Shown one piece after another: positions 13,444 to 50,000 of a DNA stretch of 64,000 nt. Source of the DNA: Geosiphon pyriformis uo1 (Eukaryota > Fungi > Glomeromycota); NCBI GenBank assembly GCA_016748015.1, contig JAAOMT010000599.1:62001-126000 (forward strand), given 5' to 3'. The translations under genes were made by a program, and so were the position numbers. Below the pieces are notes generated by a model. The model searched no databases. It was not told where the DNA came from and saw only the letters and a program-made list of their open reading frames with translations. Positions within the stretch are counted from its first letter, which is position 1. Every line of letters begins with the position of its first letter.

Positions 13444-16400
13444 TATTATAGGTAATTATTTAAGATATTGATACAAATAAACCCTTAATTTGGTGTTTAT
13501 TAATTGATAATTTTAATAATATTTGAAGATTTTGGTTGAGTTTTTTGTATAATAAACAGAGATTTAATTAATGGTTTTTTTCATGAATTTTTTTCTTTAA
13601 TATAATAGCCAGTTTATTCTAATAGTTATGTTTTTCTGGTAAGCTATTTTTAAATTTCTATTCTTATTTTTGGGTTTTTTACCAGACTTTCCTTAATGTC
13701 AAATACTTAACACTTAATTTCTTTTAATTAATTAGTAAACAACAAACAAATAAAACAAAAGAAAATAAAAAAAATTAAAAAAAAATTAAAAACAAAAAAA
13801 GAAAATAAGAAATTAGTATCTTATCAATAGCTATAATCAAAAGCTATTGGTTCAATATAGTTAAGTGTTAAATTCTATCAACATTCTATATTAATAAAAT
13901 AGAAGTGATTAATATTTTTTAATTAAGTAATAATAACATAAATTCAGATAATAATTGGTATTTTATTGATATGTAATTTAATTCCACTTTAGTTGTAAAA
14001 AACCACTTCTAAAGAGAAAGATATTGGATAATTAATAGATTTTAGCTAATTATTGGTATTGATTCTGTCTTTTTTGTTTTTAATATTCTTACTATATATA
14101 TATATTTTTTGTTATACAAAATCTTATATTTTTTTAAGTAATGTGCCCTATTTTCTTTAACAATATGCCATAATTTTTTAACAATATGCTTATTGCTAAG
14201 CAGTATACCATAATTTACTAATAATGTGCATATTGCTAAGCAATGTGTCATAATTTTCTAACATTGTGCTCTTTTACTAAGTTTTATTCTCCTATTGGTC
14301 TATTTTTCTATCTGTTTTTTCTACTTGTACTTTTTTTTATGAGTAATATTATCTTCTTCTTTAATATTGAGCTCCATCAAAATTTTTATTTTGAATTAAG
14401 TCTATCACTTCTTTTTCTAATACTGTTTGTTCAATTCTGTTTTTTATTTTTTTACTTTAAAAGTTGTTTATTTTTCCCTATTGGTTAACAGTTATTGTTT
14501 CTATTTTTTGGTGTAATAGTATTTTTGGATAATTTTGAAATATGGTGTGTAATTAGTAGATTGTTTTAATATATAATTTAGAATTTGTTTTTTTCCAATA
14601 AAATTTTCAATCTGTTATACTATTTTTTGATTGAATATTCTTTTGAATTTATTAATATATAATTCTTAAATATTTAGTTTTTGTTTTAACTAATAATAAT
14701 AATATAATATTAGAAGTTGTTCTATCTATAGCTTTCAGTTTTTTTTAGTTAACTTTTTTGTTAAAATTATTATTGGTATTTTTCCAATAATGTTTTTTAC
14801 TTTTTCAATAATTTTATCTAACCAGTATTTTGTTTGGTTCTGTAGTTGCTAGTATAGAATAATTTTTGCTTTTTTTTTGGTGTTTTGATAGCAAATTGTT
14901 TGATAATTGATAACAATTTCTATGTCTAATTATTGTTAATTTATGGCCTAAAATAATTGTTGAATTATTATGTAAATGTAATTTGGAATTTCTATCTTTT
15001 TTTGTTGCTTTTGTTATATATACTATGTTTTTTATATACTATTTTTGTAGATTAATTTGATGTGTTTGTGTTAATAATTATGATTGGTTTTAAATCTTGT
15101 GAAATCTTATCTAGTTGGATTAATATTTATTGTATTTTTAGTTGTAGAATATTATTAATAGATGATAATATTATATTGTGATATGGTTTTAGTTAATCTC
15201 TATATGCTGTTTTAGCTAAGATTTTGTTGTTCTATCTTAATTTATAAGCTTCATTTTCTAGAATTTCTTCAATATGAAATGATTTGTTTTATTTGAAGTC
15301 AAATTTTCCACTCTATTTTTTTTTGCTTTGGTATAATATAAAAGTACTTTGTCTCTAATTTTAAATTTGACTGGTTTATTTGGTTATTAGTTATTATGTT
15401 GTTTTTTTGTTTTGCTTGTAATCTTTGGATGTTATCAGCTGTTTTTTATTTTTGGTTTTCTAATGTTTCTATTAAGTTGTATGTTTTTTTTAGCAATGTT
15501 TTTTAGAAGTTGACTTCTGTTATTAGTTTTGTTGAATATATATTGATATCTATTTCAATTAATAATATTGCTGTTCTACTATAAAAAAATTCAAATAGTA
15601 TTGCTTATGTAGTATCTTGTTTTATTGTTTAATAAACAAATAATACTAATAATATAAACAAATTTTATTTATCCTAGTTTTTTTGGCTGATCTTAACTAT
15701 TGTTTCACACAATGTTTTGTTAAATCTTTTAACTAAGCCATTTGTTTATGAATAGTATAATAATAATAATAGTCTTTTGATTCCAAATCTTTAACTTAAT
15801 TCTATTAATGTTCTGTTTACAAAGTAAGTTCCTTGATTTGATAATAATTCTTTTGAACATCTATGCTAACAAATCAAATTTTGGTAAATAAATTTGGTTA
15901 TAAATTCTATATCTGTTCTTTGAATTGTTTTTGCTTTTGGCTATTTTATAAAATAGTTTATGATTATTGCTATATAATAATTGTCTCTGCTGGTTATTGT
16001 TAATAGTTTGACTAAATTAATTCCAATTTGATTAAATAGTTGTCTTATTTTAATTGGTTTTAGTGGTTTACTGGGTTTTGTTTCTCTTTTTCTTTAACAA
16101 GCATCACAATTTTGAACATATTAAATAATGTTTAGATACATAAATGGTCAATAATATTTTTTTTTGGTTCTTTTTATAGTTGCTTTTTTATGAAAATATC
16201 TTGTTGTTGAATTTAAGTGCATGTTAAATAGTATTGTTTCTTTTTCTAATTTTGTGATTACTTTGAGTGACTGATCTAGATATTTTTTATTCTTTTGGTA
16301 TAATATATTTTGGTATATAATAAAATAATTTACTTGTTGTTTTATGTTGTTTTGTTTCTTTTAAGATAATTTCTTCTTGAACTGCTAAGTATTAATATAG

Positions 16401-17450
16401 TATTAAAATTGTTGATGTTTTTATGTGTTCATTTTTTGTTATATTTTTGGGTTGAAATGTTTTTATATTTGTTTCATTTATGACAAACTATTAGCATTTT
16501 TATTTTTTTTTTATATAATATACAGTATATTAAATAGCAATAGTTCTATTTTCTATCTTATATGGCAATTGTCTCCAAATTTTTGCTTCTAGATTGATGT
16601 CAGTTTTTTGTGATTAGTGTACACATTAAACTTTTGACTTAAATATTTCTTTTATTTAATAACAGCTCAATAGATAGTTAAGTGTTTTAATGCTAGAATT
16701 TTATAGTTTTTTTTGGCTGGACTTAAACTTTTGCTGGCATATGCTATTAGATGTTCTTATTTATTTGCTCTTTTTTGTGACAATACAGCTTTTAATGCTT
16801 GACCAGATATATCAATGGTAATAATAAATAACTTGCTGTGATCTAAATAAATTAGTATTGATGTTTAAATAAGCTTTTTTTCTAAGATATTAAATGTTTT
16901 TTGTTGGATTTCAGTTCATTTATATTTCACATTCTTTGTTTAGAGCTGGTAAAATAGTTAAGCCAGTTTGGAGAAATTTTGGATAAAGTGGTAATAGTAT
17001 TCAGCAAATCTTAAAAATACTCTTAATTTTGTCAAATTTGTTGGTACTGAAAAGTTTTTAACTATTTTAATTTTGTCTGAATCTGTTTTAATGTTATCTT
17101 TGCTTACAATATGTTCCAAAAACTTGAATTCTGTTTTGCCAAAAAAATATTTAGTTGTATTTAACTTTAATCCAGCTCTTCTTAATCTTTTAAATATTTG
17201 TTGGAGATAATAAAAATAATTATTGAATGTTTTTGAAAACACATTAGTGTTATCTAAGTAGACTACTACTAATTTCTATAACAGTTCAATATAAACAATC
17301 TTCATAAGCTGTTAAAAAGTGGCTGGAGTATTGGTTAAGTCAAATGACATAATATTGAATTCGAAATTTTTTTTTTTAATAGTAAATGCTGTTTTTTTTT
17401 GTTGGCTGGATTTATAGCTACTTGCTAGTAATCATTATTTAAGTCTAATA
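13444..17450 (-). mobile_element. Gypsy element C (B-related): 3' LTR 13444-14348, ORF3 about 14360-14995, IN-RH-partial RT; truncated at 17450
   Basis: LTR start tattatagg corresponds to B tgttacagg; 14341-14385 corresponds to 43371-43415 (LTR end/PPT); RT ORF 16958-17242; collinear with 44000-46290. Confidence 0.8.
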
Positions 17451-21761: not shown

Positions 21762-22745
21762 TATTACCAGAGGTTTTTGGTCTCTTTTCTTGAATGTTGT
21801 TAATGTCTGTTTGTTGTGAATTCACGTTTTCAGAAAGTAGTTGGATCTCCAGTAACTGAATTTATCTTCAAATTATCTCCTATAATTTGAACTTGCTGGG
21901 CTTATGAGTGGAATGGCCAATTCCATGCCAGTTGCTTTATGTAGTTATGTTGTAGTAAACATCAACTCTTTCCCAAGAATTGCTCATCTGAAAGCTCACT
22001 AAAAATGTGTAGTTACTTTGCTGTGAAAGTCAACTCTTCTACAAGAATCTTGTCTGTAGGCTACCCTAATGATTGTAATAAGAAAAAATAAATAAATAAA
22101 TAAAAGAAATGTAAAAGAAATAGGATTTTATCAAGAGAAACGTTTTTCTATTCAGGCCTGAAGTCACTAACAGTTTACTGAAATTGGTAGCTAATCAATT
22201 TCAAAATGTTAGTTGGGTTTTGGGGATTTTCCAAGTGCAATAATTAAAGAATTTGATTTTTTGAATTATTTGATATTTATTTCTTTTTGTGTGTGTAGGA
22301 ATGGTTCTAAGTGATAAATCTAAAGTAAGATACATTTTCTCAAAGTAAGATGCTCTTCTTTTATACAACTTGTCGTAACACTATTCTATGAACTTGAACT
22401 TTGCTATTTTCTACAATTTCGCTAAACTAAAGATACATTTTGGCAAACTACAAGTTATTTCTGCAAACTATTAAATATTTTGGTGAACTATCAATTATTT
22501 TGGCAAATTTCTACAAATTTTGGTGAACTTTTGAATGTTACATAGTTCAGGGTATTGCATAATTGATCATTGCAATTAGATTATATTTGTGTTGTGTACA
22601 AATTGGGTTATTAATTTAAATGATAATTTTGGACATTTTGCTAATGTAATAAGTGATAATTTGAAATGATAATATATGCTAATTAATGATAGGATTTATA
22701 AGATAATTTCATGCTAAATAATATCTCTAATTTCATTTGATAACA
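21762..22745 (-). repeat. 3' LTR of element A
   Basis: Direct repeat of 30664-31647; contains a ~20-bp tandem array (attttggcgaacta-like) at about 22430-22530. Confidence 0.97.
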
Positions 22746-23433
22746 TAATCTCCTTCTCAAGACTGAGCTCCGTCAAAGTCCAAGTACTGTCTGTAATTTC
22801 CAGATAGTAATCCAAAATTATTGAAAAAATTTGGTCTGAAAATTGTTGAAATTTCAGTTCTGTAAGCTTTTCAATGTATTGAATCTTCAAAGGTCGTAAA
22901 ATTGGGTTTTGTAGGACATTTTCACAGGTGTGAAATAGGTCATAAAGTCTAAGAGCAGCTCTGAACTTGTAGTGACTGTTTGTTGGTCCAGCTGTTGTCT
23001 TGAATTCATTGCAGAGTTGTTTTTGAATAGCTTCTTTTGTGAGGTTTGCTGTTGTAAGTTCCAGTTTCCATTCGTAGAGTGTTTTTCCAATGTGGAAATA
23101 TCTATAGATTGGAGAATATTCAGTGTTTTCTTCATTGAGACACAGTTGAAGTCTTTGTTGAATTGTAGCATTTGGTGGAATACTAATTGGAGTGAGCATT
23201 AGGTTTTCTCTTAAAGCAAACTTTAAAAGTTCTGGGAGGTGAATTCCAGAATAACTTCTTGTGTTCTTCTTATATGGGTAATATTTTTGTGAATTTGGGG
23301 CTAAATTTGTAACTACTTCTGTTTGGGTATAATTAATGTGGTTTCCAGTAACAGTAATAGATAATTTGGGTATTGTTTTTAAAGCTAACATTAGTTTTTG
23401 GGATAATTGTTAAATGTTTTGAGGAATAGTCAT
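22714..23433 (-). pseudogene. ORF3 of element A, uncharacterised protein of about 240 aa
   Basis: ATG at 23433 in frame with the 225-aa ORF 22714-23391 (one intervening TAA); homologues at the same position in B, C and D. Confidence 0.8.
22746..22760 (-). promoter_or_regulatory. Polypurine tract of A
   Basis: Minus strand GAGAAGGAGATTA immediately before the 3' LTR. Confidence 0.8.
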
Positions 23434-26400
23434 TATAAGAGATTTGAAATAAAAGAAAATTATTTTTGGTGTATGGGTTTTTATGTTATTTTTTTTTTTT
23501 CTTTGTTTTGTTTTTGGTGAGATTGTTTCTAAATTATAAGAGAATAACTAGTAAAATTAAATTAAGTGTTCAGGTTGGAAGATTGTTCAATGACAACTAT
23601 TGGTTCTAAGTTTCAGAGAATATCTTCGGGATTGACTAAAGAGGAATGTGTACCAATTTGTGGAATTAATGGTTCAAAATTGTTTCTGAAATGATAGTGT
23701 TTCAAATGATCTCTATGTGCAACTTTTGCTAGGATTTTGTTATCAAGTCTTAGCTTGTATGATCTATTGCCTAGGACTTCATGGATAAAGAATGGTCCAT
23801 CCCATTTATTTTCAAATTTTCCACTCCATTGTTTTTCAGCTTTAGTTCTGTGTAAGAGAACTTTGTTTCCAATTTTAAATTCATTGGTGACTGGAGACAA
23901 TTTGTCATCATGCCATTCTTTTTGTCGAGCTTGGGAGTGTTCAATATGGGTGGCTGCTATTCGTCGTTTTTCTTCCAATGTGCTAAGCAGAGTGTAGGCT
24001 TTTCGCTGAAGCGTTTCTTGGAAATTGTTTTCATTGATTGGTTGTGCTGAGTATGTTTCTACTGTGAAACTAATTGGTAATGTTGCTGTCCTTCTGTAAG
24101 TTAAATTAAATGGTGTGTGTTTTGTGGTATCTTGTTTTAGTGTTCTGTATGCTAACAACATTGATAGAATAAAGATATCTCACTCTTGCTCAAAATTGGT
24201 TAAGACTTTGGCTAATAACTCATACAATGTTCTGTTAAAATGTTCCACAAGTCTGTTTGTTTGTGGATAGTAGGGCAAAGACAGAGGTCTTTTGACATTA
24301 AATCGTTTGCAAATTTCTTGTATTAGGTTGTTCACAAAGTGTGTCCTCTGATCGGATAAAAGTTCAATTGGACATCTATGTCTACAAATGATGTTTTCAT
24401 AGATGAAATTTGCTACTGATTTTGCATTTGCTCGTTGAATGGCTTTGGCTTTGGGCCATTTAGTAAGATAGTCTACAGCTACTGCAATATAATGGTTTCC
24501 TTGAGTGGTAATAGATAGTGGTCTGACTAAATCAATACCAATTCAGTCAAAGAGTTGTCTAACTTTGATTGAATTTAATGGTTCAGTAGGGTGTGTTTTT
24601 CCTTTTCTTTGACAATTATCACAAGATTCAACATATTCATGAATGTCTTTTCTCATTTGAGGCCAAAAGTAGTATTCTAGTGTTCTTTGGATGGTGCTAT
24701 CTTTTCCGAAGTGTGCTGATAAAGGATCTAAGTACATGTTGTATAATATGGTCTCTTTTTTCTGTTCTTGTATTAATCTGAGTGGTTTGTTTGAGTTTTT
24801 GAAATTTTGATAATAAATAATGTTGTTGTGTAGAAAATATTGTTTGGCTTGCTGTTGTAGTCAATGTTTTTTATCTAGAGACCAATCTGTTGGAATTGTT
24901 AATATTTCCAAATATTGTTTGAGATTGTTATAGTTTTCTGAATTCATTGTTTGTTGGCTCTTTTGGTTGGTTAAGTTGAGTGTTGGTTTTTGTGTTTTCT
25001 AATCTTGTCTTATTCTGGAGAGACAGTCAACATTGGTGTGGAGTTTTCCTGGTTTGTGATGTACTATGTATCAATAGTTTGCTAGAAATCCTGTCCATCG
25101 GGTTTGTTTTGCATTCAGCTGAGTATTTTTGTTTTGAAGCCATTTGAGTCTAATATTATCAGTGATAATATCGAATTTTTTAGGCCTGAAATAAAAGTTG
25201 AAGTGATGTAGGGCCCAAATTATGGCTGCTGTTTCTAGTTCTGTGGCAGAGTAGTTTTTCTCAGCTGGTTTTAATGTTCTGCTAGCATAAACAATTACTC
25301 GCTTATTTCCATTGTCATCTAATTGTGATAAGATGACACCAAAGGCAGTATACGAAGCATCTGTAGCTAGTCGAAATTGTTTGCTGAAATCTGGGTAAGC
25401 GAGGATTGAAGCTGTTGTCAGTTTTTCTTTGAAAATTCCAAAAGCTTTTTGGTGTTTGGTAGTTCATTTGTATTCAACGTTTTTGGTGGTAAGCTGGTTG
25501 AAGGGTTTTGTAATTTTCAAGAATCCTTTGATAAACTTCCGATAATAGGATGCTAATCCTATGAATCCTCTTAGTTCTGTAGTGTTTTGAGGAGTTTTGA
25601 AGTTTTTGACAATGCTGATTTTTCCAGGGTCCGGTTTGATTCTATCTTTACTAACAATATGACCAAGGAAGACCAGGCTTGTTTTTCCAAAGTAGCATTT
25701 TTTGATGTTGAGTTTTAGTCCTGCTTTTTGTAATCATTGAAAAACTTCTCACAGGTGTTTTAAGTGTAATTCGAATGATGGAGAATAAACATCAGTATTG
25801 TCAAGATAAATGACTACTGACTTTCAAAGGAGTTCTTGGTACACAACATCCATTAATCTCTAAAATGTTGCTGGTACATTGCATAATCCGAAAAGCATTA
25901 CATTGAACTCGTAATTTCTGTCTTGGGTGATGAATGCTGTTTTGGAGTGATCTTTGGGATCCATAGCAACTTGCCAGTAACCGCTTTCTAAATCTAGTGT
26001 TGAAAAATATTTGGATTTTCTAAGGGCATCTAACATGTTATCAATTTGGGGAAGGGGGTAGACATCTCCAATTGTAACACTGTTGAGTTGTTGATAATCA
26101 ACACAAAATCGGATCTTTCCATTTTTCTTTTTAATTAGCACTACAGGTGAAGCCCAAGAACTCATGAAGGGTTGGATGAGCCCATTGTTAAGCATTTGTT
26201 GTACTTTTTTTCGGATGAATTGGTGGCTTTCTGGAGCAATTCGATATGTTTGTTGTCTTCTTGGTTTGGCATCTCCTGTATAAATTTGGTGTTGGACCAA
26301 ATTGGTTCTTCTTAAGTCATTGTTGTTTTCAGCGAAGATATCGGCAAATTCTATAATTAGCTCTTTGAGCTGAATCTGTTGTTGTGGTTTAAGTTGTCCC

Positions 26401-26839
26401 ATGTTGATTCAAGATAGTTTTTCTATAACAACATGGTAGTTTTCGGAGCTGGGGTTTGGGTTGATTTTTGGTAGTGAATGTCCAATAATTTCAGAGAAAT
26501 CAGGGACTGTTTGGGGTAATTCTTGTTGAAATATATTATTGTAAATAACTCCAATTTCTAAATTATTTAATAAAATTATGAGGTAATTATTGGGGTTGTA
26601 AAAAGTAACTCAGACTTTCTTTGTTTCTTCTGGAATATAAATGTTTGGGATCTAAATATTATGTTTCAAGCAGACTTGTTCATTGGACTCAAAAATTTGT
26701 TGTGTGGTTGTTGGCTTTGGGCAGGTGTAGATTTCTGGATGTTCTCTAAAGGGTGAGATGGTAATTGGTTGTGGAAGTCTGAGAATCTGGTGGGATTCAT
26801 TCTGTATATTAAGAGCTATATTAACTGGAACTGTGAATC

Positions 26840-27240
26840 GTCCAGTTGAACCAAAATTTTGGGTTCCTCTATCGCTTTTTCCTAATTGTTCTCTTTGATT
26901 GACTAGTTGCAAACCCAAAATGTTGATTAAGGGTAGATAAATAGCTTGGGCAATTTTTTCAGCATGTTTGATCTTGAATGGTTTGTCAGTTTCATTTTAA
27001 AGCATCACTGTAATGTCTCCAGTATATCCAGCATCAATTATTCCTCCTCTGACATTGATTTCTTTGCTTGCCAAAGAGGACTGGGAGGTGATTTGAACCA
27101 TTGCTTCTGGCGGAATTTCGAGTGCAATTTTGAGGTTGATTTTTGTGAGAGATTTGGGTTTGAGAACAAGAGTATCCTTGCTTGGATATCTTAGGTCATA
27201 TCCAGCATCAATTTCATGTGCTTTTTCGGGTTTTATTTCT
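26840..27240 (-). pseudogene. dUTPase domain within pol of A
   Basis: All five trimeric dUTPase motifs: DAGYDL, SQSSLA, GIIDAGYTGDI, EKIAQ, RGTQNFGSTG. Confidence 0.92.
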
Positions 27241-30200
27241 TGTCCGTTGTTGTTGAAGTATTTAAGTTGTAAGGCAGGCTGATTTTTAATAAGGTAGATG
27301 GGTGTTGTTTCAATTTCTTCCATTGCTTCAGGTTCTCCAAATTCAATTTTATTCTCATCATTTTCGCTGGGCAAAGGGATACTAAGAGCATAGCATTCAG
27401 GACACCACTGTTCATCACAAGGCATAATGCATTCTTCACATAGTCTAATGTTTATTTGCTCTAATTGTTGAATTTGAGCTTCTTGGGTTGGGTAGGTGTG
27501 ACTTGCAATTTGGTGGTAGACTTCTACTTCGTCTTTGTAATCGAATTCAGCTAATTCTATGATGTATTCAATGTATTCTGCTTTCTTTATTTGACAAACA
27601 TCTTTTTTGATAGCTCTATTAATTAATGCCATTGCTAAGTCGAAAATCATTTCGGCATCATGGGGGTAGTGATAAAGTTTGTTGAGAGCACTGTTGTATG
27701 CTACATTAAAGAGTGTTTCTCTTTTTACTTTTTCTGAAATTGATAAAGCATATTGGCAGGTCTGATTGCAGACTCCTCCTCTCATGGCTACATCAATCCA
27801 ATTGCATTCTTCCGGTAGCATATCTTCACAAGTCAAACAAGGAGTGTTGTCTCATTTTCCGCTTCTTTTTATTAGATGGCCCCATTATTCTCTGTGGCAA
27901 GCCTTGCAGTAATAACAAGTATGATTTTTATATTCTTCTTCAGGTAAAATGCAGGCTCCCATTAACAATAGTTTCTTGTGGTAGTCTTTACATTTAAGGA
28001 GAATATAGGGGTGTTGTTTCCTTGGTTCAGGTTTTGAGTAAGGGATATTCCATCCAGAGGTTTCAGATTCAGAGTATGAGGTAAAATGTTCTTGTTCTGT
28101 TTCATTGGCCCAGTTGGACGTTGATCCAAGAGCCATGAATGTTTCAATGAGGGGTTTTTCCTCTTCCAGTTTGAATTCAAAAGCCAGGGTTTTTTTAGAG
28201 CATTTGTTGAATGTACTACAAGTGGCAGGTACCCAGGCGTGTTGTTCTTGGTAGGAGATTGTTAACTCTTGTGTTTCTCAATTCAGATTAGCATTGGCTT
28301 TTTAAAGCCAATCATTTCCGATAAGAGCTTAGTACTAGGGTGCATCCATTACAAAAACTTTGACTGGAATGGTAATTCCATCAAGAGTGAATGGAAAATT
28401 GTCAATTTCTTCTACTGGGGTCTTTTTCATGCCATAGGCAGTGATGATTATTGTTTGAGCTGATTGGTCGACATTTCTCTTCAACTGTTGCATTAACTGG
28501 TAGATAATAATGCTTCTGGCAGATCCACTGTTTAGGATCAAGTGAATTGTCTTTTCTTCGACTTCTGCTTCAATGTATATAGCCATGATTGCTTTTTGTT
28601 TATTGGTGGCTGCATTGCTAAGCAGGAATGATGACTCATTTGCTTCAAACTCAAAAGGGAATATATCTGAAAGGTTAGTGTTTTCAGCAATTCTGGCTGA
28701 TGAGATTATGGTGAGAATATAGGAAGGGTTTTGTTGTTGTGCTGCAGCTCTACCTTCCGAGAGTGCTGTATGGTAAAAATCCTGTTCTTCTGGCATTGTT
28801 AAATAACTGGGTTGAGTGTGGTAGTGGTTGGGTCTTGGTTGAATGGAATTTCGGGGAACTAATTGGTTGTTCGAACTGATTCTATTGTTGTTTACTTGGT
28901 ACTGGTTTTGTGGTGTGAATTGATTTTGTGTAATCAGTTTTCAAGCAGGTACTTGATAATGTTGTGTGGATGGTTGTTAGTATTGCTGTTGGATTGGCTG
29001 TAGAGCAGACTGATAATAGTTATTTTGGTATTGGGGTCTTGGTGGATAGTAAGCTGGTGGTGGTGGTTGATAATAAGATTGCTATAGTAAAGGGTAACGT
29101 TGATTACTCCTATTTTGTTGGTCTTGTTGTAGCTTTCTGCAATCTCTTTTCCAGTGGCCAGAGATTCCACAGTAATGGCAATTCTGAGGCTGGTTATTAG
29201 AAAGTGGTGCAAAGTTATTTTGATTTTGTCTTTGGGGTGGTTGATATCTTTGGGGTTGCTGTTGTTGTTGATTGGTGAAATAGTTTTCAACCTTCTTTGT
29301 GAGTTGGTCAATTTTTTCCTCAGCTGCTAAGCTGGTTTTTCCAATTGCCAAATTTACAAGTTTTGTGCAATTGGCCTCTTCTATGGCCATTTTGTATCTT
29401 TTTGCATGCTGTATGGCAGAGTTTAAATCTTCTGGCGCATGTGAGTGAACCTTTTTAATTAATTTATCTTTTAGACCAGCAATAAATTGATCTAAGATTT
29501 GAGCATTGGAATAATAATTATTTGTTTCAAGTTGGCAAATTTGTCTGAGAAGTTTGTTGAATTTCTCGATATAAGTCATAACAGATTCGGAGGGTTCTTG
29601 TTTGATATTTCAAAAACGATTTTGAAGGGTAATGAAGGTATTATTGTCGGTGAACTGTTCAAGGAAGGCTGCTTTGAAAGCGTTCCAATCATTGAATGGG
29701 GCGGCCAAGTTTTCAAATCATTCTCCTGCTGTTCTTTTGAGAAAGTAGTGAATTGTTTTTAACATTCTGGCAGCATTCCATCTATTTGCATCTCCAGCTT
29801 TAGTAACTTGGTCAAGCCATTCTTGGGGACTGGTCTCAATGTTTTTTCCATTAAATTCAGGGATTTTTGCAATGTATGTTGTCATTTTGTCTTCTTCATT
29901 TTCACTGTCTATTGATTCTTCTTCAGATATTTCAGGTTCGTTTTCTTTGTTCACTGCTGTCTCAAAGTGTTCACTTTGATTTTTAGCTAGAAAGTCAAGG
30001 AGATTAGAACTAGTTTGAAGGGGTTCTTGTTGTCTGATGGGACTTCTGAGTGATGTAAAATCTTCTGGTCTTGCAAATCAATTCAAAGGTGAATTAGTCA
30101 TTTGTGCTTGTGCAAGTGAAGCTGGAAAAGGTGTGATAGTAAGTGGAAGTTTTGAACTGGTTCCTTGTTCAGGTGTTTGTAAATGTTTGGCAGTTGTTTT

Positions 30201-30650
30201 TGGTAGTGTTGGAGTATTTGGGGTGGTTTTTGAGTCTTGTTTTAATTTGTTTTTGTCTTTGTTGCTTGTTTCTGTTTTTGATTCAAAATCAATAAAGTAT
30301 TGAGACTGCACTGGATATGTTTTTTCACAGTATTTGATAATGTTAAAATTAAGTTTGTGAAAGTAAGTGGCAAGTGTTTTGCTATTAAGGTTTTCAGTTC
30401 CCAACTGTGAATAGTGTGCTAAATTATTGTAAAGGTTGCTTCTAACTTCTGAGATATTGTAATTTCCAAAAAGATAATTGTTAATGTGGTTTTCAATGTA
30501 TTGGTATACTGATTTCTTGACAACTTCAATTCCGTCTAAAATGTTGAATCTTTGCTTGCAGTGGGTGTAAATTGATTGGTAATACTCTAGAGTTGTTGCG
30601 TCTGGTGTGATTGCCACTTTGAATTTTGTTGTTGCTGTGTTATTTCTGTA

Positions 30651-30661
30651 GGAGAGCACCA
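30651..30661 (-). promoter_or_regulatory. Primer-binding site of A
   Basis: TGGTGCTCTCC, 2 nt inside the 5' LTR, complementary to a tRNA 3' end ...GGAGAGCACCA. Confidence 0.85.
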
Positions 30662-30663
30662 AA

Positions 30664-31647
30664 TATTACCAGAGGTTTTTGGTCTCTTTTCTTGAATGTT
30701 GTTAATGTCTGTTTGTTGTGAATTCACATTTTCAGGAAGTAGTTGGACCTCCAGTAACTGAATTTATTTTCAAATTATCTCCTATAATTTGAACTTACTG
30801 GACTTATAAGTGGAATGGCCAATTTCGTGCCAGTTGCTTTATGTAGTTATGTTGTAGTAAACATCAACTCTTTTCTAGGAATTGCTTGTCTGAAAGCTCA
30901 CTAAAAATGTGTAGTTATTTTGCTGTAAAAGTCAACTCTTCTACAGGAATCTTGTCTGTAGACTACCCTAATGATTGTAATAAGAAAATAAAAAAAATAA
31001 AATAAAAAAAATGTAAAAGAAATAGGATTTTATCAAGGGAAACGTTTTTCTATTCAGGCCTGGAGTCACTAACAGTTTACTGAAATTGGTAGCTAATCAA
31101 TTTCAAAATGTTAATTGGGTTTTGGGAATTTTCCAAGTGCAATAATTAAAGAATTTGGTTTTTTGAATTATTTGATATTTAATTTTTTTTGTGTGTGTAG
31201 GAATAGTTCTAAGTAATAAATCTAAAGTAAGATACATTTTTTCGAAGAAAAATGCTCTTTTTTTATACAACTTGTTATAACACTATTCTATGAACTTGAA
31301 CTTTGCTATTTTCTACAATTTCGCTGAACTAAAGATACATTTTGGCGAACTACAAATTATTTCTGCAAACTATTAGATATTTTGGTGAATTATCAATTAT
31401 TTCGGCGAATTTCTACAAATTTCGGCGAACTTTTGAATGTTACATAGTTTAGGGTATTGCATGATTGATCATTGCAATTAGGTTACATTTGTGTTGTGTA
31501 CAAATTGGATTATTAATTTAAATGATAATTTCAGATATTTTGCTAATGTAATAAGTAATAATTTGAAATGATAATATATGCTAATTAATGATAGGATTTA
31601 TAAGATAATTTCATGCTAAATAATATCTCTAATTTCGTCTGGTAACA
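30664..31647 (-). repeat. 5' LTR of element A
   Basis: Direct repeat of 21762-22745, same length. Confidence 0.97.
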
Positions 31648-32544: not shown

Positions 32545-35500
32545 GTGTTTTATAAATATTGTATATAATAAAATTCTCTGAAAATTAATAATAGTGTACT
32601 TAAACAATATTAATATATTCTCAAAAATGTTCAATAACCATTTGCTTAACTTCCAACAAATTTTTAATTATCTTTAAAGTGCTAGACTAAAAATTAATCC
32701 AAACAAATACTTCTTTAAAAAGACTAAACTAAAATTCCTAAAACATATAATAAGCAAAAATAGAGTAAAACTAAATTCTAACAAGATTTAAAAAATAAAC
32801 TTTCTGGTTTTAACCAATCTATGTAAACTAAAAAGATTCTTAAGACTGGTTAAATACTACTGTAAATTTGTTAAAAACTTTTTTAACATTGCAAAACAAT
32901 TTCATTATTTGCTGTTAAAACATATTCTGTATCTATATAAAAAAAATAGTAAGAAACTTTTGATTATCTTAAATAACACTTAATAGAAGTACTAATATTG
33001 ATTTATTCAGACTTTAATAAATGCTTTATTGTTATTATAAACATTTTAAAGAATATACTAAAAACCATTTTGTCACAAATCAAATCAGACAATAAGAATA
33101 TTCAATTACTTATACCAGTTACAATACTAATACAGTAAAAAAAATATACAGTATAACTAATTTAAAATGTCTTATTATTTACTAAGTTGTACAAAATTGA
33201 AAACATTATTTTTGCCAACTATTTAACTTATGTACTGATTACAAAAAACTTATTTGGTTAATTAGCAAATTACAACTTAAAAGAAAATATGCATAATAAA
33301 GTATTTATTTGTAATAATTTTTATATAAAGTATATTATAAGAAAAAAGCCAAAAACACTAATATTAACAATTTGTCAAGAATAATACAAATCTAAACTTA
33401 TGAATACAATCATTTACTAATAATTATATCAGTATTTATTAACACTTTGGTTTAAAAAAAAATTATCTCAACAAAAACAAAGTATTATATGAAAACAAAA
33501 TCTCAATAATTTTATTCAAAACAATCAACTATACTATTAAGAATGTTAAAACTGCACTATTTTATAATAAATTATAAAAAACAATAAAAAAGAAACTATT
33601 TTGCATGACATGTATTTTGATTTAACTACAGAACACTTTAACAAAGATGTTACTTTGAAAAAAACAATAAATCTATATTATTGGTTAATAATGTATAAAA
33701 ATATTTTTGAATATATTTTTAACTATAACTTATGTTAATAAAGAGAAAAAGCCAGAATAATAAAACAATTTTAACTCATTTTAGTGAAAAATATTTTTAA
33801 TAAAATTAGAATTAATTTGATTGGTTTTTTTTTAATTACATCTAAAAAAATTGCTATATTATTGTAACTATAAACTATCTTATCAAATGGTTTAAAATTA
33901 GAGCTATTCAAATAGCAAATGTTAAAACAATAGCCGAATTTGTATATTAAAATCTGATTTGTTAATATAAATGTTTGAAAAAATTATTATTTGACCAAAA
34001 AACTTATTTTATCAATAATATGCTAATTAAACTAAGCCAATAATTCAGAATAAAACAATCTTTATTGTCACTTTATTACCTATAAACAAATAAACTAATA
34101 GAACAATTTAACTAAACATTATGTAAAACATTAGCAAAAATAAATTATAAAAATCCACAAAAATAAGACTTATTTATATCTTTTATATTATTAACATATC
34201 AAATATTAAAGCAAAATACTACCTAGTTTATATTATTTGAACTAGTTTACAGAAGAAAAACCACTTTACTTATTGAACAAAAAATATTTTTTTTCTTAAC
34301 AAAACAATTACTAAAGAGAATTTTGAAGCTATCTTATATTAGAAAACATACTAATTTATGAAAACATTAAAAAACAATTATAAAACAATAGCTAAAAATA
34401 TTAATAATACTTAAGAACAATAGAAAAAAAAACATAATAATTACTTATCTAATCAACCAGTTGAATTTAAGATTAAAAACTAAGTATTATTATATTATAC
34501 TAAGCTAAAAAACAGTGAAATAAAAAGTTTGACTTAAAATGTGATGAACTATTTTATATACACAAAGTTTTAAACAATAAAGCTTATAAATTATAATTAA
34601 AAAACAGAATTTTAAAAAAATAGCACATAGAAATTGTTTAAAAATTTATTATACAAACCAAAAGTTATTGTTATTTGTATCTTAATTAGAAACACAGATT
34701 TTATTAATCAGACCAGAAAATATACTATAAGATCTAGAACCAATTATTATTATTAAAATATAATTAATATATAACCATTTAATTAAAAAATTCAAATATA
34801 TATAAAAACCAAGACAGCAAAAAAAAAGTTGATAGTATTCTCAACATGGATCTTTTAAATCAAATTTTAAGACTTTCAAAACAACTATTTGAAGCAATTC
34901 AACAATTTACAATATCAATAGAAATTATAATTAATAGAAAAAAGTTACAATACAAAAATTTGCACAAAAAAAAAAGAACAAGAATTTAACAAAAACTAAG
35001 CATTTCTATTTCTTTGATTAATCAAAAAAAAAAAAAGATTGTATATGCTTAACAAAATTAAGAAAGCTTTAAATAAGCTAATTATAGAACTAATAATAAG
35101 AAAGTAGACACCAAAAACCTTTAAAGCATGGAAAAAAAGACTTTTACTAGTATATTGATTTTTTAAAATTGGTAAAAAACTTGATCTTCAAACATTATAT
35201 TTAAATACTAACAAATAAATATTCAACAGAAAAGTTCTGAAATAAATAGAAAAATTCATTAAAAGAAATAATCTAATACTGTATTACAAAGTAACATATT
35301 AATTGTATTTAGTATTTAAATATTGTCCAGCAATACTGTTAAACAATTCACTAAAGTTGATTACAGTTAATAATATAAAATGAATAATAAATACACAGTT
35401 TGAAAACCTACAAAAAACAATACCTGACACAATAATTGAATATTATACTAAAAAAACAATTTTTACAGATATATACGATTTTACAAAAGCTTAAAAAGAA

Positions 35501-36399: not shown

Positions 36400-38432
36400 T
36401 TAAAGATTTATAACTCTAATACATCTTATATATCTATAAAAAAAATTCCAAACTTTTTATATCTAAACTTAAAGCACTAAATATTACTATTACAACTTAT
36501 TAAGTTTACTTATAATACTGTCAAATTGTTTTTATAATAGTAACAAATATAAGTTTTATATTTTTTTTTGGTAATATACAAGCTTTTATTAAAAAAAGCT
36601 TTTTGCTATAATTCTTATATTTGAGTAAAATGTAAACAAATTATTTCTTAGATTTCAGTTTTAAGTATAAAACATACTAACTGTTAACTGGTTTTATTGT
36701 AAAAATAAATTATTGACTAATTTTTTTAAACCATAATAATATTTATTATAATGTAAATATTTTAAATAACTGTTCAGTTTTTTCAGCTCAATCAGATTAA
36801 AAATTAAGTATTATATAAGTTTTAATAATTGGAAGAGTTTTTTTTTCAAATTCAAAAACTTGGGCTTTTTTTGATTATTTGTTGAAAATATTATAAGTAG
36901 TTAATATTTTAATATATTGTTTTTAGTAAAAGATTTTTGGTTTTTGTATTTCTCAATCTAAGTTAATATTGGCTTTTAAAAGCCAGTTATTTTTAATAAA
37001 AGCTTAGTATTAAGATATATTTATAATAAAAACTTTAATTGAAATAATAATTTCATTAATTATAAAAAAAAATTGTTGATTTTTTCTACTAATGTTTTTT
37101 TTATATTATTAATAATTACAATAACTGTTTAAGCAAGTTAATTAACATTTTTTTTAATATTGTATTAACTAATAAATAATAATATTTCAATGAATTTATT
37201 ATTTAAAATCAATTAAATTAATTTTTTTTAATTTTAGTTTCTGTATACATAGCAATAATTGCTTTTTGTTTTAAAGTAATTATATTGTTGAGTAAAAATA
37301 GTGATTTATTTGCTTTAAATTCGAAAAAAAATATGTCTAAGATGTTAATATTTTTAGCAATTCTTGCTGGTCAGATTGTAATATTATTATGAAAAAAGTT
37401 TTGCTATTATGCTATAACTTTACTTTTCAAAAGTACAGTATAATAAAAATTCTGGTTTTTTGGTATTATAAAATAACTAGATTATATATAAAGATATTTA
37501 AATAGTTATTAATTATTATTGTAAAGTACTATTTGATTATTGGAATTAATTCTGTTGTAATTTGGTTAAAAACAATTTTTAAACTAAAGTTTTAATGAAT
37601 AATAGATAAGTAGTAATAAATAATATAATTACTATTGCTAAAAAAAATATTATTAATTATTCTGTTTTTGTTGATTTTTTTGTATTTTTCTGTAATCATG
37701 TTTTCAATTTTTAGGAATTTTACAATAATGGCAGTTTAATAATTAAGATTAATTGTTGAATAAAAAAAAGTTTTTTTGGTTTTGGCATTGAAATGGTTGA
37801 TATTTTTGTTAATTAATAAAATATGTTTTAGCTTTCTTGGTAAGTTAATCAATTTTTTTTAATAATTAAACTGGTTTTTTTAATTACAAAGTTGACAAAT
37901 TTGGTATGATTGGCTTCTTTTATAGTTATTTTATAGTTTTTAGCATATATTATAGCAGTTAAATCTTTAAGTATATATAATTAAACTTTTTTAATAAGTT
38001 TATTTTTTAGTTTAGTAACAAATTAATCTAATAGTTAAACATTTAAATAGTAATTATTGCCTTCTAACTGTCTAATTTTTTAAAAAAATTTGTTGAATTT
38101 CTTAAGATAAGTTATAACAAATTCTGTAAATTCTTGTCAAATATTTCAAAAGTGATTTTAAAGAGTAATTAAGATATTGTTATTAGTAAACTGTTTAAAA
38201 AAGACAGATTTAAAAGTTAACCAGTCAACAAAAAATACTGCTAAGTTTTTAACCTATTTAGCTATAGTTTTTTATAAAAAATAAGAAATTGTTTTTAGCA
38301 TTTTGGTTGTATTCTATCTATTAGTATTTTCAACTTTAATAACTTTGTCAAGCTATTCTTGAAAACTGGTTTTAGAGTTATTTCTAAAAATTTAAAAAAT
38401 CTTTATAATATAAATAGTAGTTATTTTTTATG
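36400..38432 (-). pseudogene. Old A-like element F, left part (capsid-protease-Cys-rich relic)
   Basis: 37250-37470 aligns with 28570-28800; 37840-38400 aligns with 29290-29870. Confidence 0.75.
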
Positions 38433-38568
38433 TTTTTTTTTTTTTTATTCATTTAATGAATGAGGTCTAAAAACCACTTAGAACTATACATTAAGGAAAT
38501 GATTTAAACTAAGTGTAAATTATGCATTTTCTACACGTGACCAGCCACTCGAGCCAATCAGAACAACA

Positions 38569-41500
38569 CTATACACTTATATTAACAGAAACTAGGTTAC
38601 CAATACCTGAAAAAAATGAACAAGACTTGCAAAAGCCAAAACAGACACCAAAAGCTTTAGCAATACCAAGCAATTTAATTATACCAGCCAAAAACCCCGA
38701 AACCAAACCAGAAACCAAGATGAAGATTGAGCTATCTACTGGGATCAGGCTATTTTTTTCCATAAATATGTGATGCTTAGCACAGACCAACCAAATGTCA
38801 TTCCTGAAAGCAAGACAAATAGATTGCACAAAATTAGCAATTTTAACACCAGCAACTTTGGGATCATGGAAGATGAAAATAGCCTCCTGAAGCATCCATT
38901 GAAAACAAAACTCTTGTAAAGAGCTGAGAAAAGTGGGAAGTCCAAAGCACAGGTTGACAGCAGTTGTAATACACCTAAAGAAGGAAGAGAGAGACCAAAA
39001 AGCACCCTCCATAAAGACATACAAGATTCCAAGATCTGATGACAAGCTGAATCATCAACCATATAAAAAAACACATGATTAGACACCTCCACCTTACCAC
39101 AATACAAACACAAAACACTAGAGTAACATTTATTGTAAATGCACTTCCAAACAGCCACAGAAAGCTGACAGTGCAAAGTCTTCATAAGATAAGTTCAAAT
39201 ATTAGCAGTCAGCCTGCTGGTGAAACCAGTGGCCATATGCAAATTAGGGTGCCAAATCCTGGAAGAACAAAGCCAATTGACATCTGAATGCAAATCACCA
39301 TCTAAAAATCCAGAACCAGAACTGATCTCTCAATTTGCATAACAAACAACACAAAAAACATCATAAACAAAGTGCCTAGAATTACCAGAAACAACACTAC
39401 CATCTACCAACAAAAAATATTCACTAATACAAAGAGGAAGATACCAACCAGAGAAAGACACAGTATTAGCGAAGCTATTAGCATAATCATTCTCCAAAAC
39501 ACCAGAGTGGCTCTTAATCTTGTGCTATTTAACACTTAAATTCTTACTGCAAATAACATTTCTGATATGCTGACATTTGACCCAACACCAATTGTAAAAA
39601 TCAAGACACACTAGGTCAAACTCCAATCTGCAAGCATTCAAAGCTGCCTGACTATCCAAAAACAGATGAACAGAATGAGCTGCAGACACGCACTTTAGAG
39701 CCAACGCTATAGCTTGCAGCTCTGTTAAAGTGGATGACACTAAGTCTTGAACACTAATATCCAAACCCAAATTAATGTTCTCAAAAAAGGCAGCAGTTCT
39801 GGCTCTACAACCAATCATGCCCAAATTCTTTAATGAACCATCCATGTACACAGACAAGCTATCAGTGCCAACCTGAGAAAAACAATCACAAACAGACACA
39901 AAATCATTAGAACCATGAATGTCCAGAGGGCCAACATCAGCCAATGCTGAGAGAGAAGAATGAGGAGCCACAAAAAATGCAACAAAAAGTTTGAACCATT
40001 TAGAAACTGGACTATGAGGGTCCAGCCTCTTCTACTGCTTAAAGATGTGCCAGCTAAAGACACTATCATTACAATCATAAAGCTGGTCCACAAAGACAAT
40101 GCTATAATGCTGGAAAGAAGATAAAAACTTGCAAAACAAAGACTCACCAAGAACAACAGACATAGGTACTCCACCATGAAACTGGAAAGAGCTGGCCAAA
40201 GAGCCACCCAAAGATAACTTGCAGTCAAAAAGAATGTGAACCATACCAGCTAAGAAATTATTAAAAACATTGACATGAATACAAGCAGGAGAAACCAATG
40301 GATAGACAGGTTGTCAACACAAAACCTATAAGTCATAAGACCTGTAACTGAACAAGTGCTCCAAAATCTCACCAGAGTTTGCAAAACTAATAAGCAAAGC
40401 AACCTTACCCTCAGATTGACACTACAAAAAAGACTTCAAACCATAAAAAAAGAGGTGGTGAATTGTATCACTAGGAAAGTCCAGTTGAAGACCAGATTTT
40501 AGTTTCAAGCCCTTGCGAATCAAAGCATCCCATTTGTTGTACACACTAATAAGAACAAAGCTAAACTGTGTTCTATAGCTTACAATAGGGTGAAGAATTG
40601 CCAAAACCAAATACAAGAACTGTTTATCTGAGACAGCTTTTTTCAATACCAAATTAGTGAAAAAACAAACATCTAAATGCGTCCTTATCAAACTAGATTT
40701 AGAAAAACCCTCAGTTGAAAGAAAAATACCCAAGTATCTATGAGACTCCCCCTTTTTGGCGATTGAAATAGGCAGACCACTTATAGAAAGAAAAGAATTG
40801 CTAATCCTGCTGTTAATAAGAATTACTACTGTTTTGTCATTGTTAATTGAGATATTATTGATCCGAAAAAATTCACTGGCAACATTGAAAATATGTTGAG
40901 TAGCACTTTGACTGCTACCAACCCAAATTATATTATCAATAAAGACACCAGCAGCAAAAAAGAAAAAATGCCCAGCCCAAGATTTGGCATGACCATTTTT
41001 AGAAATAAAATAAGAATTCAGTCTATATCTACATACACTCTCCTAATGCTTGACTTTACACAACAAAGGATCATAAAATATTCACCACAAAAGGGGAGAG
41101 AAAACTTCTCCTTGATCCAGATCATCATGTACATGATAACTATCCATCAAACCAAAATCTGTCATAATCCAGTTGGTATGATTATTGTGAATGTTGCCAA
41201 AAAAACGAATGAATTTGCTACATATCTTAATCCTGATCAAATTATTTTTGAGATATTCCCAGCCAACCAAATCATATGCTTTCCGCATGTTCTGCAGAAC
41301 CAGCCAAAGTTCTCAGTCCTTTTCCAAAGCATCTTCAACTACCAAACCAATTGCAAAAATAGGAGACTGAGTTGTTATACTCTTTAAAACCAAGAAATTG
41401 TCCACATAAAGGACATCAAAAGCACTATATGCTGAGGAGATTCTGTTAGAAAGAATCTTAAAAAGAATCTTACAAGCCATTTTGATCAAAGCAATAGAAT

Positions 41501-43378: not shown

Positions 43379-43379
43379 T

Positions 43380-44021
43380 TATTCTCTCCTTTTAATATTA
43401 AGCTCCGTCAAAATCTAACTCTGTTAATTCCTCTTCTTAAAGTATTTCCTAAATTTTATTTTCAAGAATTACTTGTGTTATTTGAGTCTGTAATTCTTCA
43501 AATTGAGTATTGGTAATCTTTCCTAATTGATTACTGATAACTGTATCTATTGCTTTATTAAGTAAGATTTCTGGTCAATCCTGAAATGCTATGTGTATTT
43601 GGTATATGGCTCAGGCCTGTGTGAATAAGTTGTTCTTTCCCACAAAATGTTCTAATTGTTGTAGTATTCTTGTGTCAAATAATTGCTTTGTTTTATCCAT
43701 ATATAAATTCTAGATATTCATGTGTTGTCTCAAGTAAAAATAACAATAGTTTCTTGGAAATTGTTATATTCACCAATTCCAAGTTTCTTTAGTCAAGTTT
43801 TGGTATAGTGACTCTTTTGTCGACTCTTTTATTGCTAATTTTACTTTCACAATGATTTTGTCAATGGTATTTTCTGTTTTCTTCTGTGTTCTATATGGCG
43901 ATGTCTTTCTAGTGTCTTAATATTGGATGGTTTATTGATTAATTGTAATTTTTATCTCTTGGTGTTGAATCAATTGAAAGAGTTGTTGTACTAGTGAGTA
44001 GATGTTGTCTGTAATTTCCAT
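43380..44021 (-). pseudogene. ORF3 of element B
   Basis: ATG at 44021; MEITDNIYSLVQQLFQLI...NYCYFYL...AIYQIHIAFQD*PEILLN...LGKITNTQFEELQTQI; stops and a frameshift. Confidence 0.75.
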
Positions 44022-44064
44022 TTTTTTGATATTTTTTGTCACATCTATATATTTTTTTGATAGA

Positions 44065-47000: not shown

Positions 47001-50000
47001 CTCTCCTTTCTATTGCTAACATGTATCAGCTATATGGTGGAATAGAAATTGTTTGACCAGTTGAGATAATTTCTCCTTGGCCAATAATTTTTTCCTCCAC
47101 CATATTGACTAGTACATCTATTTTACCTATTGATTCAAATCCCTGTATCTCTCTTGCTGTTATCCCTAATTCTTTTCTATTTCCCACTAAAACTAACTGA
47201 GCTATTTTCACCAGAGGCAGGAATATTGCCTGTGCTATCCTTTCATTTGGCTCTATAATATAGCCCTTTTCTGAATTATTTTGTAGTATAGCAATGATAT
47301 TTCCTACATATCCTGTATCAATTATTCTTCCTTTGATGTTTATTTCTTTTTTTGCTAAACTATTTCTAAATGCTAATTGAACTATTGTTGTTGCTGGAAT
47401 TTCCAGTGCTATTTTCAGATTGATATAAGTGCACAAATGGGGTTCCAATTTGATGGTGTTCTTTCCTGAATATCTCAGATTAAATCCTGTATTAGTATCA
47501 TGTGCACATTCTGGCATGATACCTTTATCATTATCACTGAACCATTTTAGTTCTTGCTCTTTGGTGAGGTCAAAAAGTACAATATATTGTTTGTAGTTTG
47601 AATTGGAGTTTGAATCTGAGTTGGAATCATTGTCATTGTTATAGCCATTTTGAATAAAGCTGGAACTGTTATTTTTGTTATCGTTATTGTCAGAGTTTGA
47701 ATTGGGGTTGGAACTCGATTCCAATTCTGATGTGTAGCTATTGATTGGTTCTTCTTCTTTGGGGATTGTGTAGATCATGCATGGTGGTGATCACAGAATT
47801 GGAAATTACATGGAATCAAACAGTGGTCACATAATCAGGTGTTGATTTCTTCCAAGCATTGCTCTTGCTCTTTTCTTGTGGGTGCTAGATTCTGATAGTG
47901 TTCATGGAATTCTTCTGGGCTGTTTTCTAAGTCGATAAAGGTGCCCAGATTGAGAACCAAAACAATGTCTGTTGGTTTTGAAGGGTTATTTTTGATTTCC
48001 AGAATTTCACTGGGCGAAGTGCCTTCTATTTTGGCATTGGCCATTTACCAGATCTTGTCCTCATTATGTGGATAGCTGTCTAGACAGGATATAGCTCAGT
48101 GCCATGCTGCTATGATGGGCATACCATGATTCATCCAGTTGCTGATAAGGATTGTGTATTGGCACAAAATGTTGCACATTCCTCCTTGACTAGGAATGTT
48201 GTTCCACATTCTTTCGTCAAATAATTGTTTGCCGCAAGCAAGACATAGTTTGTTGTCCTACTTTCCTTGTCTTTTTGGGTAGCTATATCATTCCCTATAG
48301 CAGAGCTTGCAATAGTAATGGGTTCGCATCCAGTAGTCTTTGTCTAGTGCTATCCAAGCTTCTATTAAGAACAGTTTCTTCTCACAGTCCTTGCATTTGA
48401 GAGATATATATGGTGGCTCTTTTATTGGTTCACGTGAGTATTCTCTTTTCCAGTCACTAGTTATTTTTTCTGTAGTAGTGGTTTCTTCAGGTATGTTTTC
48501 TTCCCTTTTTCCTTGTTCTTTTCTTTCTAATCTAGAATTGGTGGCATTTCACTTTGGTTGTTGTTGGTCCAAGTGTCAATAGTGGCTTCCCAGATAGGTT
48601 TTTCTCTTTGTTTCTTCTTTCCATTGTCATTGTTGTCCCAGGCGAGTATTGGTGGCAGTTTGTTGTGGTCGATGTTGGCCCATGAGACTTGATATGCTTT
48701 CCAGATGGGTTTCACTTTTTTTTTCTCGAATTTGATAAGTGGTGTTGATGGTGTAGTGATAGGATTAAAGTGGCCACACGTGGCTAGTACCTATGTGTAT
48801 CGACTGTTTTGGCTAAGCTGGAGCTCTTAGGTGTTTCAATCTAGAGTCATGTTGGTTTTGGACAGCCAGTTGTTCCCAACGAATGCTTGATATTGAGTGG
48901 CTTTTATGATGAGTACTTTGATTGGTACTATAATGTCATTGACTTCTATGGAGAAATCATCAATCTCTCCAATGGGTGTTTTGGTTGTTCCATTAGCTGT
49001 AATAATCCTGGTGCTAGCAGTACGATTAACTCAGCAATCTAATTGATTCATAAGTTGTCTTGTGATGATGCTGCCAGCTAATTTACTATTTAGAATCAGT
49101 TTGATAGAATGACCATCAACTTTCGCATCAGTGTACATCGTGGTAATGGATTTTTTCTTGTATGTTGCTCCACTGAACAAAAGTGGGTTGATGGTTTCCT
49201 CTAATTTGAAAGAAAAGATGGCTATGAGAGATTTGTTTTCAGTGACTGTTGCTGGTGAAATATTGTTGGTGAGTGTTGTTTGAAGTGGGTTGGATTCCAA
49301 GTTGTTGGTAGTGGCATCTTCTGGGGTAACCAGAAGACTTAAATAGTTCTGGGAATTTGGGTTTTGGGTGGAACCAGTACTCAGATTCCACTGTTAAAAG
49401 CCTGATGGTTGGTGAGAAAAGTTGGGGATTAGTTGATAAACAACCATCGCCAATCTCCAGTTTTGAGTGATTCTAGGTCTTGGGTTTCCTAATGTCATTT
49501 GAGTGGGGTTTTGGAGTGGTATTTGAATTGGTTGTTGGTGCTGATAAATTATTTGGGGCTGCGGCTGATAAATTACCAGTGGCTGTGGTTGATAAATTGG
49601 AGGTTGATATACTGGCAGTTAATAGATTGGTTGCTGCATCATTGGCAGGTAAGTGGTTTGATATTGGTCTTGATTTGGATAGTGATTCTGAGTCTGAAAT
49701 TTGCGATCAGGGTTTTGATATTAATTTCCCAATTATGGATTGTTGCTATAAAATTGACAGTCAGCTCTAAAGTGACCTTGTTTATTACAGTTGTGGCAAA
49801 CACGTGTTTTTGGCTGCCACAGCTGATTGGGTAATGATGATAATGATGATGTTGATAGACACAGCTAATTTTGGAAATGATTTATGTTTCCTGAATTATT
49901 GCGTCATTGTGGTGGTTGATAAATTGCATGATTGTCAACTAAGTATCCCTCTAGTTTCTGATTGATTGTATTACTGAATTGTTTTAGTTTGGAATCCAAG

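Follow-up and report, generated by a model that had tools for sequence, protein, structure and literature searches.

A cysteine-rich insert between protease and dUTPase in a Ty3/Gypsy retrotransposon family of Geosiphon pyriformis

What is a stretch of some 200 residues, rich in cysteine, doing between the protease and the dUTPase of a retrotransposon polyprotein? The question is raised by a 64,000-nucleotide piece of the Geosiphon pyriformis genome (contig JAAOMT010000599.1; the window hereafter), AT-rich and full of repeats, in which an earlier note made from the letters alone had picked out a twelve-cysteine insert in two elements, A and B. All the motifs that it quoted were found in both elements, on the minus strand and in one frame (Table 1). 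Pfam matches to an aspartic protease and a dUTPase on either side bore out the placement of the insert.

Element A (21762-31647, minus strand), which houses the insert, is a full-length yet decayed Ty3/Gypsy LTR retrotransposon. Its reading frame (29885 to 23571), broken by 26 stops but by no frameshift, encodes the gag capsid, a CCHC knuckle, protease, insert, dUTPase, RT, RNase H and integrase in that order. The two LTRs are 93.8% identical, the target duplication is 4 bp (ACAC), and a primer-binding-site-like TGG motif follows the 5' LTR at ~30648-30661. By its LTRs, target duplication, primer-binding site, purine tract and domain order, the element belongs to the Ty3/Gypsy LTR retrotransposons (Metaviridae), and by the position of its dUTPase between protease and RT to the dUTPase-bearing Gypsy elements. 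Chromoviruses carry a chromodomain after the integrase, whereas the RT-to-end translation of this decayed copy gave no chromo match at E 0.1. Two in-frame stops (27887 and 27854) interrupt the insert of element A, and 62 codons, including an acidic linker, separate its last cysteine from the first dUTPase motif. Element B has the same domain order with several frameshifts.

Table 1. Positions in the window of elements A and B, their domains and the parts of the cysteine-rich insert.
Feature	Position	Strand	Remarks
5' LTR of element A	30664..31647	minus	
Gag capsid domain and CCHC zinc knuckle, element A	29133..29696	minus	Pfam Retrotrans_gag, zf-CCHC
Aspartic protease, element A (decayed)	28308..28571	minus	Pfam Asp_protease_2/RVP_2
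Cysteine-rich insert, element A (210 codons)	27381..28010	minus	in-frame with protease and dUTPase
Finger 1	27897..27992	minus	C-x2-C-x23-[FY]-C-x2-C
Finger 2	27756..27839	minus	C-x2-C-x19-C-x3-C
Acidic part, helical throughout (five helices predicted beyond finger 2)	27456..27737	minus	
Finger 3	27393..27440	minus	C-x2-C-x8-C-x2-C
dUTPase, element A	26841..27230	minus	Pfam PF00692, E 1.5e-21
RT, RNase H, integrase (H2C2, core, SH3-like end), element A	23691..26135	minus	
3' LTR of element A	21762..22745	minus	purine tract precedes
Element B	42548-52473		LTRs 42548-43378 and 51603-52473, 86.6% identical; target duplication CCAC
Cysteine-rich insert, element B	47790..48410	minus	11/12 core cysteines
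Third A-type stump, heavily decayed	36554..38379	minus	gag, protease, first residues of finger 1, then lost

Gypsy elements with a dUTPase between protease and RT have been described from fungi, rotifers and planarians, and the known bearers include Postia placenta PosPlaTy3-5, Phanerochaete and Tuber elements, rotifer Juno, Vesta and TelKA, and giant planarian elements (PMC2864245, PMC5408684, PMC6431247). They share with element A the same dUTPase slot in a Gypsy-order pol; the cited descriptions, as far as they extend, mention no 200-residue cysteine domain ahead of the dUTPase, and give Juno one knuckle after it. The view that canonical Gypsy pol runs from protease to RT overlooks the dUTPase already described there. 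For the insert no published description was found (the G. pyriformis genome papers and the fungal LTR survey supplements lay outside the scope of that search).

Aligned across the family, the insert has a core of C-x2-C-x24-C-x2-C, 18-20 residues, C-x2-C-x19-C-x3-C, ~105 residues and C-x2-C-x8-C-x2-C, whose cysteines in element A fall at 27992, 27983, 27908 and 27899; 27839, 27830, 27770 and 27758; and 27440, 27431, 27404 and 27395. They are not a single grouping: ~100 helical residues split them into clusters of eight and four. Twelve is the right number for the family core and one too many for either window copy, 11 of 12 being kept in A and in B: a tyrosine (TAC) replaces the second core cysteine of element A at 27983, and a small frameshifting deletion near 47790 removed the last one of element B. 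The whole insert stretch holds 16 cysteines in A and 13 in B. Outside the core, Cys 27419 is an additional cysteine within finger 3 in five of the six subfamilies (see below) and a serine in subfamily B2. Invariant K-W, W-x-D and Y flank finger 2. Identity between the A and B inserts is 38-39%, and their finger regions align with a single gap of one residue. Chance does not account for the cysteines: in 500 resamplings matched for composition, a loose six-cysteine pattern turned up 0.106 times on average and reached two in 5 of them, whereas the window contains it three times, overlapping matches included. The short CxxC-x8-CxxC pattern by itself is not rare, being present in 128 of the 500. 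An internal duplication relating finger 1 to finger 2 was unsupported (P 0.11).

The genomic copies are dead, with cysteines turned to tyrosine and transition-rich LTRs, and so likeness within a family proves nothing. Family A retains 86% of its cysteines; the losses go to Tyr, alongside changes of E to K, D to N and M to I, and transitions make up 54 of 61 and 73 of 77 differences in the LTR pairs. These differences are C/T or G/A in every dinucleotide context, with CpG and CpC most hit, and CpG observed/expected within the elements is 0.21-0.27; the decay points to a methylation-driven or RIP-like process without strict CpA preference.

Comparison between families is more telling. When 240 homologues were sorted into three subfamilies by a motif rule, 12 of the 17 A-family cysteine columns were kept in all three versus 62 of 185 others (Fisher p 0.0035). 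With further proteins added, a tree of 30 chosen inserts contained six subfamilies, of which D and E have 7 and 1 known members in the protein set; cysteine is in the majority at ten of the positions in every subfamily, and at the last two in each of the five with coverage there. The subfamilies that carry these twelve are just 30-45% alike, and 42 of 193 columns are invariant across them, none a histidine. Column counts are noisy, since the G. pyriformis proteins come from gene models spliced across decayed copies. The models splice at the first two cysteines in subfamilies B and B2, where these residues are present in only 12/33 and 15/34 proteins (B) and 13/28 and 18/29 (B2). Between A and B the three fingers are 49, 44 and 44% identical, close to the protease (45%) and the dUTPase (48%), versus 30, 8 and 20% for three linkers; the helical part is 28-31% identical between subfamilies. 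Insert length and cysteine spacing are near-constant in the six subfamilies while true linkers vary, that from the insert to the dUTPase measuring about 60 or 100 residues. The conservation of the fingers between families, together with a stop-free relative, P0290, argues for a real in-frame domain of the polyprotein, which by these comparisons evidently evolved under purifying selection when the elements were still active. The earlier note had let its case depend on the cysteines being conserved in the family consensus, and twelve proved to be shared across subfamilies.

How far does the insert range? The named relatives seen (120 of 322 matches listed, 120 of 134 listed, and all 19 long proteins) were all Geosiphon pyriformis gene models, up to 83-88% identical. 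A profile search of 1.84 billion representatives returned 413 proteins at E 0.001 and 338 at 1e-10. The best 150 of the 413 comprised 25 previously named G. pyriformis proteins and 125 new ones; 19 of the latter, picked mostly for divergence, were looked up and proved to be 18 G. pyriformis proteins and P0290. Distant or free-standing homologues may lie among the other 263, weaker matches, 75 of which fall between E 1e-10 and 1e-3. P0290, an ENA protein record, is a single ORF of 1064 residues, free of stops, that encodes protease, dUTPase and RT and, over about residues 338-552, an insert with all twelve cysteines; it nests among the Geosiphon subfamilies (support 0.87). In being stop-free it is unlike the decayed G. 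pyriformis copies. Scans of viral contigs (77 pattern matches) and metagenome contigs (62 and 158), which reach close relatives only, gave no confirmed match. Among the sequencing runs listed, one DNA run and no RNA run carried the family. Flanks of at least 60 residues matched element A or B in 358 of 366 cases, the other eight being linker or frameshifted pieces, and no donor gene for the insert appeared among the flanks of the proteins compared. At least 259 'hypothetical proteins' in the G. pyriformis annotation are pieces of this transposon region, modelled as spliced genes across its decayed copies; they are not host genes and inflate the gene count of the species.

Neither window insert matched Pfam at E 1, and among the 25 commonest families for sets of 74 and 83 homologues there were scattered sub-threshold zinc-finger rows only. 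NCBIfam matched none of seven sequences, PHROGs one of seven (E 0.063) and the PDB by sequence nothing better than E 0.15; the best ESM Atlas scores, 0.81 and 0.77, were under the useful range. A profile match in the PDB to HapE/NF-YC (E 0.19) was rejected, the predicted helices having no counterpart of the long central helix that a histone fold includes. Foldseek against the PDB and BFVD found nothing at E 0.001 (matches E 1 or more). On these searches of Pfam, NCBIfam, PHROGs, the PDB and fold libraries, the insert matches no described protein family. The earlier description of it as an undescribed module is upheld in the libraries searched, and no known Pfam domain was found at this position.

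A first AlphaFold model, built from 74 sequences, resolved the helical part alone. A second, of the intact homologue P0035 with 83 sequences and finger 3 left out, gave finger 1 as a knuckle, a hairpin (65-67/77-79) and a helix (81-88) that starts at the second cysteine pair, with pLDDT 54-87. This corresponds in its elements to a treble clef, described as a zinc knuckle, loop, beta-hairpin and helix with two ligands each from the knuckle and the helix start (PMC4999995). In both models finger 2 has a knuckle, and the first helix of the bundle begins at the last two cysteines of this finger, with no predicted hairpin and pLDDT 36-66; finger 3 is below 50. Among the Foldseek rows listed, 20 of 44 were LIM, RING, ZZ, TRASH or FYVE fingers, 12 of them LIM. 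Alignments of finger 1 to fingers of these types reached Z 3-4.3, with rmsd 1.9 over 41 residues for a PINCH LIM, a likeness to be read knowing that AlphaFold may favour treble clefs at any CxxC pair. Generic helical folds were the sole matches of the bundle, the best (Z 7.0 and 5.9) being a type II secretion pilotin over ~60 residues, in a Z range deemed common. Fingers 2 and 3 entered the fold searches only as parts of larger models, so their lack of matches carries little weight. Finger 1 is accordingly modelled as a treble clef resembling LIM, ZZ and TRASH fingers; finger 2 is predicted to cap the helical bundle, and finger 3 to be a short C4 knuckle. The proposal of three C4 metal sites gains support from the count of exactly twelve shared cysteines. 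These likely bind three zinc ions, at sites predicted to be filled in sequence order; cross-braced or five-ligand arrangements may occur instead.

Several described fingers resemble parts of the insert. LIM was the commonest weak fold match of finger 1, and LIM domains are likewise two C4-like fingers in tandem, tandem treble clefs that serve as protein adaptors. The insert differs in being all-cysteine with fingers 18-20 residues apart, where LIM has a histidine ligand and a two-residue spacer; Pfam LIM appeared in 2 of 83 proteins (E 0.021). PHD and ADD fingers follow a C4-H-C3 pattern with a conserved histidine, and neither fold was among the rows listed for the finger model, which is of moderate confidence. 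In intact members the spacing of finger 2 agrees with the C-x2-C-x19-24-C-x3-C of zf-FCS/MYM (PMC4136804, PMC2532748), and fingers 2 and 1 (C-x2-C-x19-C-x3-C and C-x2-C-x24-C-x2-C) equal two MYM half-spacings (PMC4136804), here in reverse order and 18-20 residues apart. ZMYM5 TRASH and L24e gave weak fold rows. The zf-FCS signature, F-C-S or F/Y before the third cysteine (PMC4047054), is absent, finger 2 reading V/T/M/I-C-D/N; no zf-FCS/MYM clan match reached the cut-off in the 74 and 83 proteins (top 25 families), and from MYM, zf-FCS and TRASH fingers (ZMYM, FLZ, L24e) the insert differs in its fused helical bundle and third finger. The betaretroviral NC-dUTPases (MMTV p30, M-PMV) also place a zinc module directly N-terminal to a basic dUTPase; theirs is a basic CCHC nucleocapsid, frameshift-joined and upstream of the protease (PMC4531489, PMC1802613), whereas the insert is acidic, of C4 type, and follows the protease, in an element whose Gag retains its own knuckle. 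The nucleocapsid pattern C-x2-C-x4-H-x4-C in a basic context is absent from the insert, the CCHC knuckle being separate, in Gag.

The inserts have a net charge of -11 and -13 (pI 4.7-4.9), and fingers 1 and 2 together a median of 0 in 26 intact copies, values that decay (E to K, D to N) pushes upwards; finger 1, which has an invariant K-K-L, is slightly basic. The adjoining dUTPase has pI 8.8-9.9. Aromatic residues are invariant at W 27854, W 27800 and Y 27752, and no invariant His or Glu suited to catalysis was found across the six subfamilies. An acidic insert without invariant histidine weighs against the nucleic-acid- or chromatin-binding module of the earlier note, a reading that found no support, given also the neutral fingers 1 and 2 and a spacing unlike that of PHD. 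Because the insert is acidic beside a basic dUTPase, lacks a catalytic His or Glu and has protein adaptors as most of its nearest folds, we tentatively favour, at less than even confidence, a protein-binding adaptor that would act within the element's own particle. Under this proposal the Gag-Pol polyprotein of a dUTPase-bearing Ty3/Gypsy family would include the insert as an accessory domain conserved by selection. Translated as part of the polyprotein, the insert would be trimmed out by the element's protease, either on its own or together with the dUTPase, and would bind a basic protein partner (dUTPase, nucleocapsid or RT complex) in the manner of LIM-type treble clefs, which bind proteins. 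The variable linker to the dUTPase fits an independent domain and a partner equally.

The partner might instead belong to the host. An acidic surface with invariant aromatics could bind a chromatin or silencing protein (histone, methyltransferase or repair enzyme) and make the insert an anti-silencing or targeting factor after its release from the polyprotein. The host does mutate its repeats heavily, by the transition counts and CpG and CpC bias given above; similarly spaced MYM-type fingers bind SUMO and chromatin complexes (PMC4136804, PMC2532748), and captured domains of other Gypsy elements are described as countering host marks (PMC9289625). We nevertheless consider this unlikely: the PHD/ADD ligand pattern is missing, the one zf-HC5HC2H match (1 of 83 proteins, 18.8 bits) lies below the cut-off of 29.1, the insert lies a long way from the integrase, the site of targeting chromodomains, the aromatics may be mere core residues, and the copies were silenced and mutated anyway. 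It is improbable that the insert is a counter-defence protein, an acidic nucleic-acid mimic blocking a host cytosine-methylation, deamination or uracil-repair protein and, alongside the adjacent dUTPase, keeping new cDNA intact; if true, this would help to explain the striking LTR expansion reported for Geosiphonaceae (PMC11952901). Nor do we think it likely that the insert is a nucleic-acid anchor kept fused to the dUTPase and holding it at the site of reverse transcription. Its betaretroviral precedent is the zinc module adjoining dUTPase in NC-dUTPase (PMC4531489, PMC1802613), and rotifer Juno elements carry an extra zinc knuckle after theirs (PMC5408684); RNA is bound by FCS fingers (PMC4047054), and the slightly basic finger 1 with its K-K-L would suit such a role. 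The net charge of the whole insert and the neutrality of fingers 1 and 2 speak against an anchor, even with the upward bias of decay, as do the CCHC knuckle that Gag already holds and a dUTPase that is basic by itself.

Two further readings were weighed. The insert could be a captured piece of a host or viral gene, with no partner of its own, whose sole use is as a folded spacer or an aid to processing, in a protease-RT slot that tolerates additions (the dUTPase, and a further 140-residue spacer after it) and with a helical part so modestly conserved; near-fixed length and cysteine spacing where true linkers vary, invariant residues of surface type (K-K, K-W, W-x-D) and the lack of a donor gene among the flanks compared make this improbable. 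Least probable, and very much so, is an enzymatic role for the cysteines, or one in holding an iron-sulphur cluster, in place of structural zinc. The patterns of deaminases and His-Me nucleases involve His or Glu and are absent along with any invariant His or Glu, and neither an enzyme family nor an enzyme fold was matched, against which stand the five cysteines in finger 3 of most subfamilies and the catalytic activity of certain treble clefs (PMC4999995).

Fungal and plant LTR elements with extra domains are known in general (PMC3248453, PMC9289625). That an LTR retrotransposon stably captures such a domain is regarded as uncommon and tends to signal host-element conflict (PMC9289625), and the reason some retrotransposons carry a dUTPase was called unclear in a fungal survey (PMC2864245), a question on which the insert bears. 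The narrow host range seen and the dead window copies limit its significance, and its role is a predicted one. Since at least six subfamilies have parted without losing it and it belongs to no named family, it offers a concrete target for structure and partner work, for which P0290 puts a stop-free natural version on record.

Other parts of the elements and of the window gave minor observations. An additional open frame of 231 codons (22714-23409, minus) lies between the integrase and the 3' LTR of element A and has no Pfam match; element B has a decayed region of similar size in the corresponding place. A 195-codon open stretch in the gag frame (30078-30665, minus), between primer-binding site and capsid domain, likewise had no Pfam match. 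In the 140-residue spacer from dUTPase to RT (26406-26831, minus), A, B and P0290 align nearly gap-free at 20-30% identity; its faint likeness to the dUTPase itself (P 0.047 and 0.12) suggests, without establishing it, a degenerate second dUTPase-like copy. Two more decayed Gypsy RT-integrase remnants lie at 13100-17400 and 32550-34740, with no insert or dUTPase traces detected beside them. Another repeat family has several minus-strand copies, at 59700-63750, 38500-42500, 52350-54700 and 700-5800; an RT match in one copy (Pfam E 9.5e-11), with a weak RNase H match, suggests that these are non-LTR retrotransposons.
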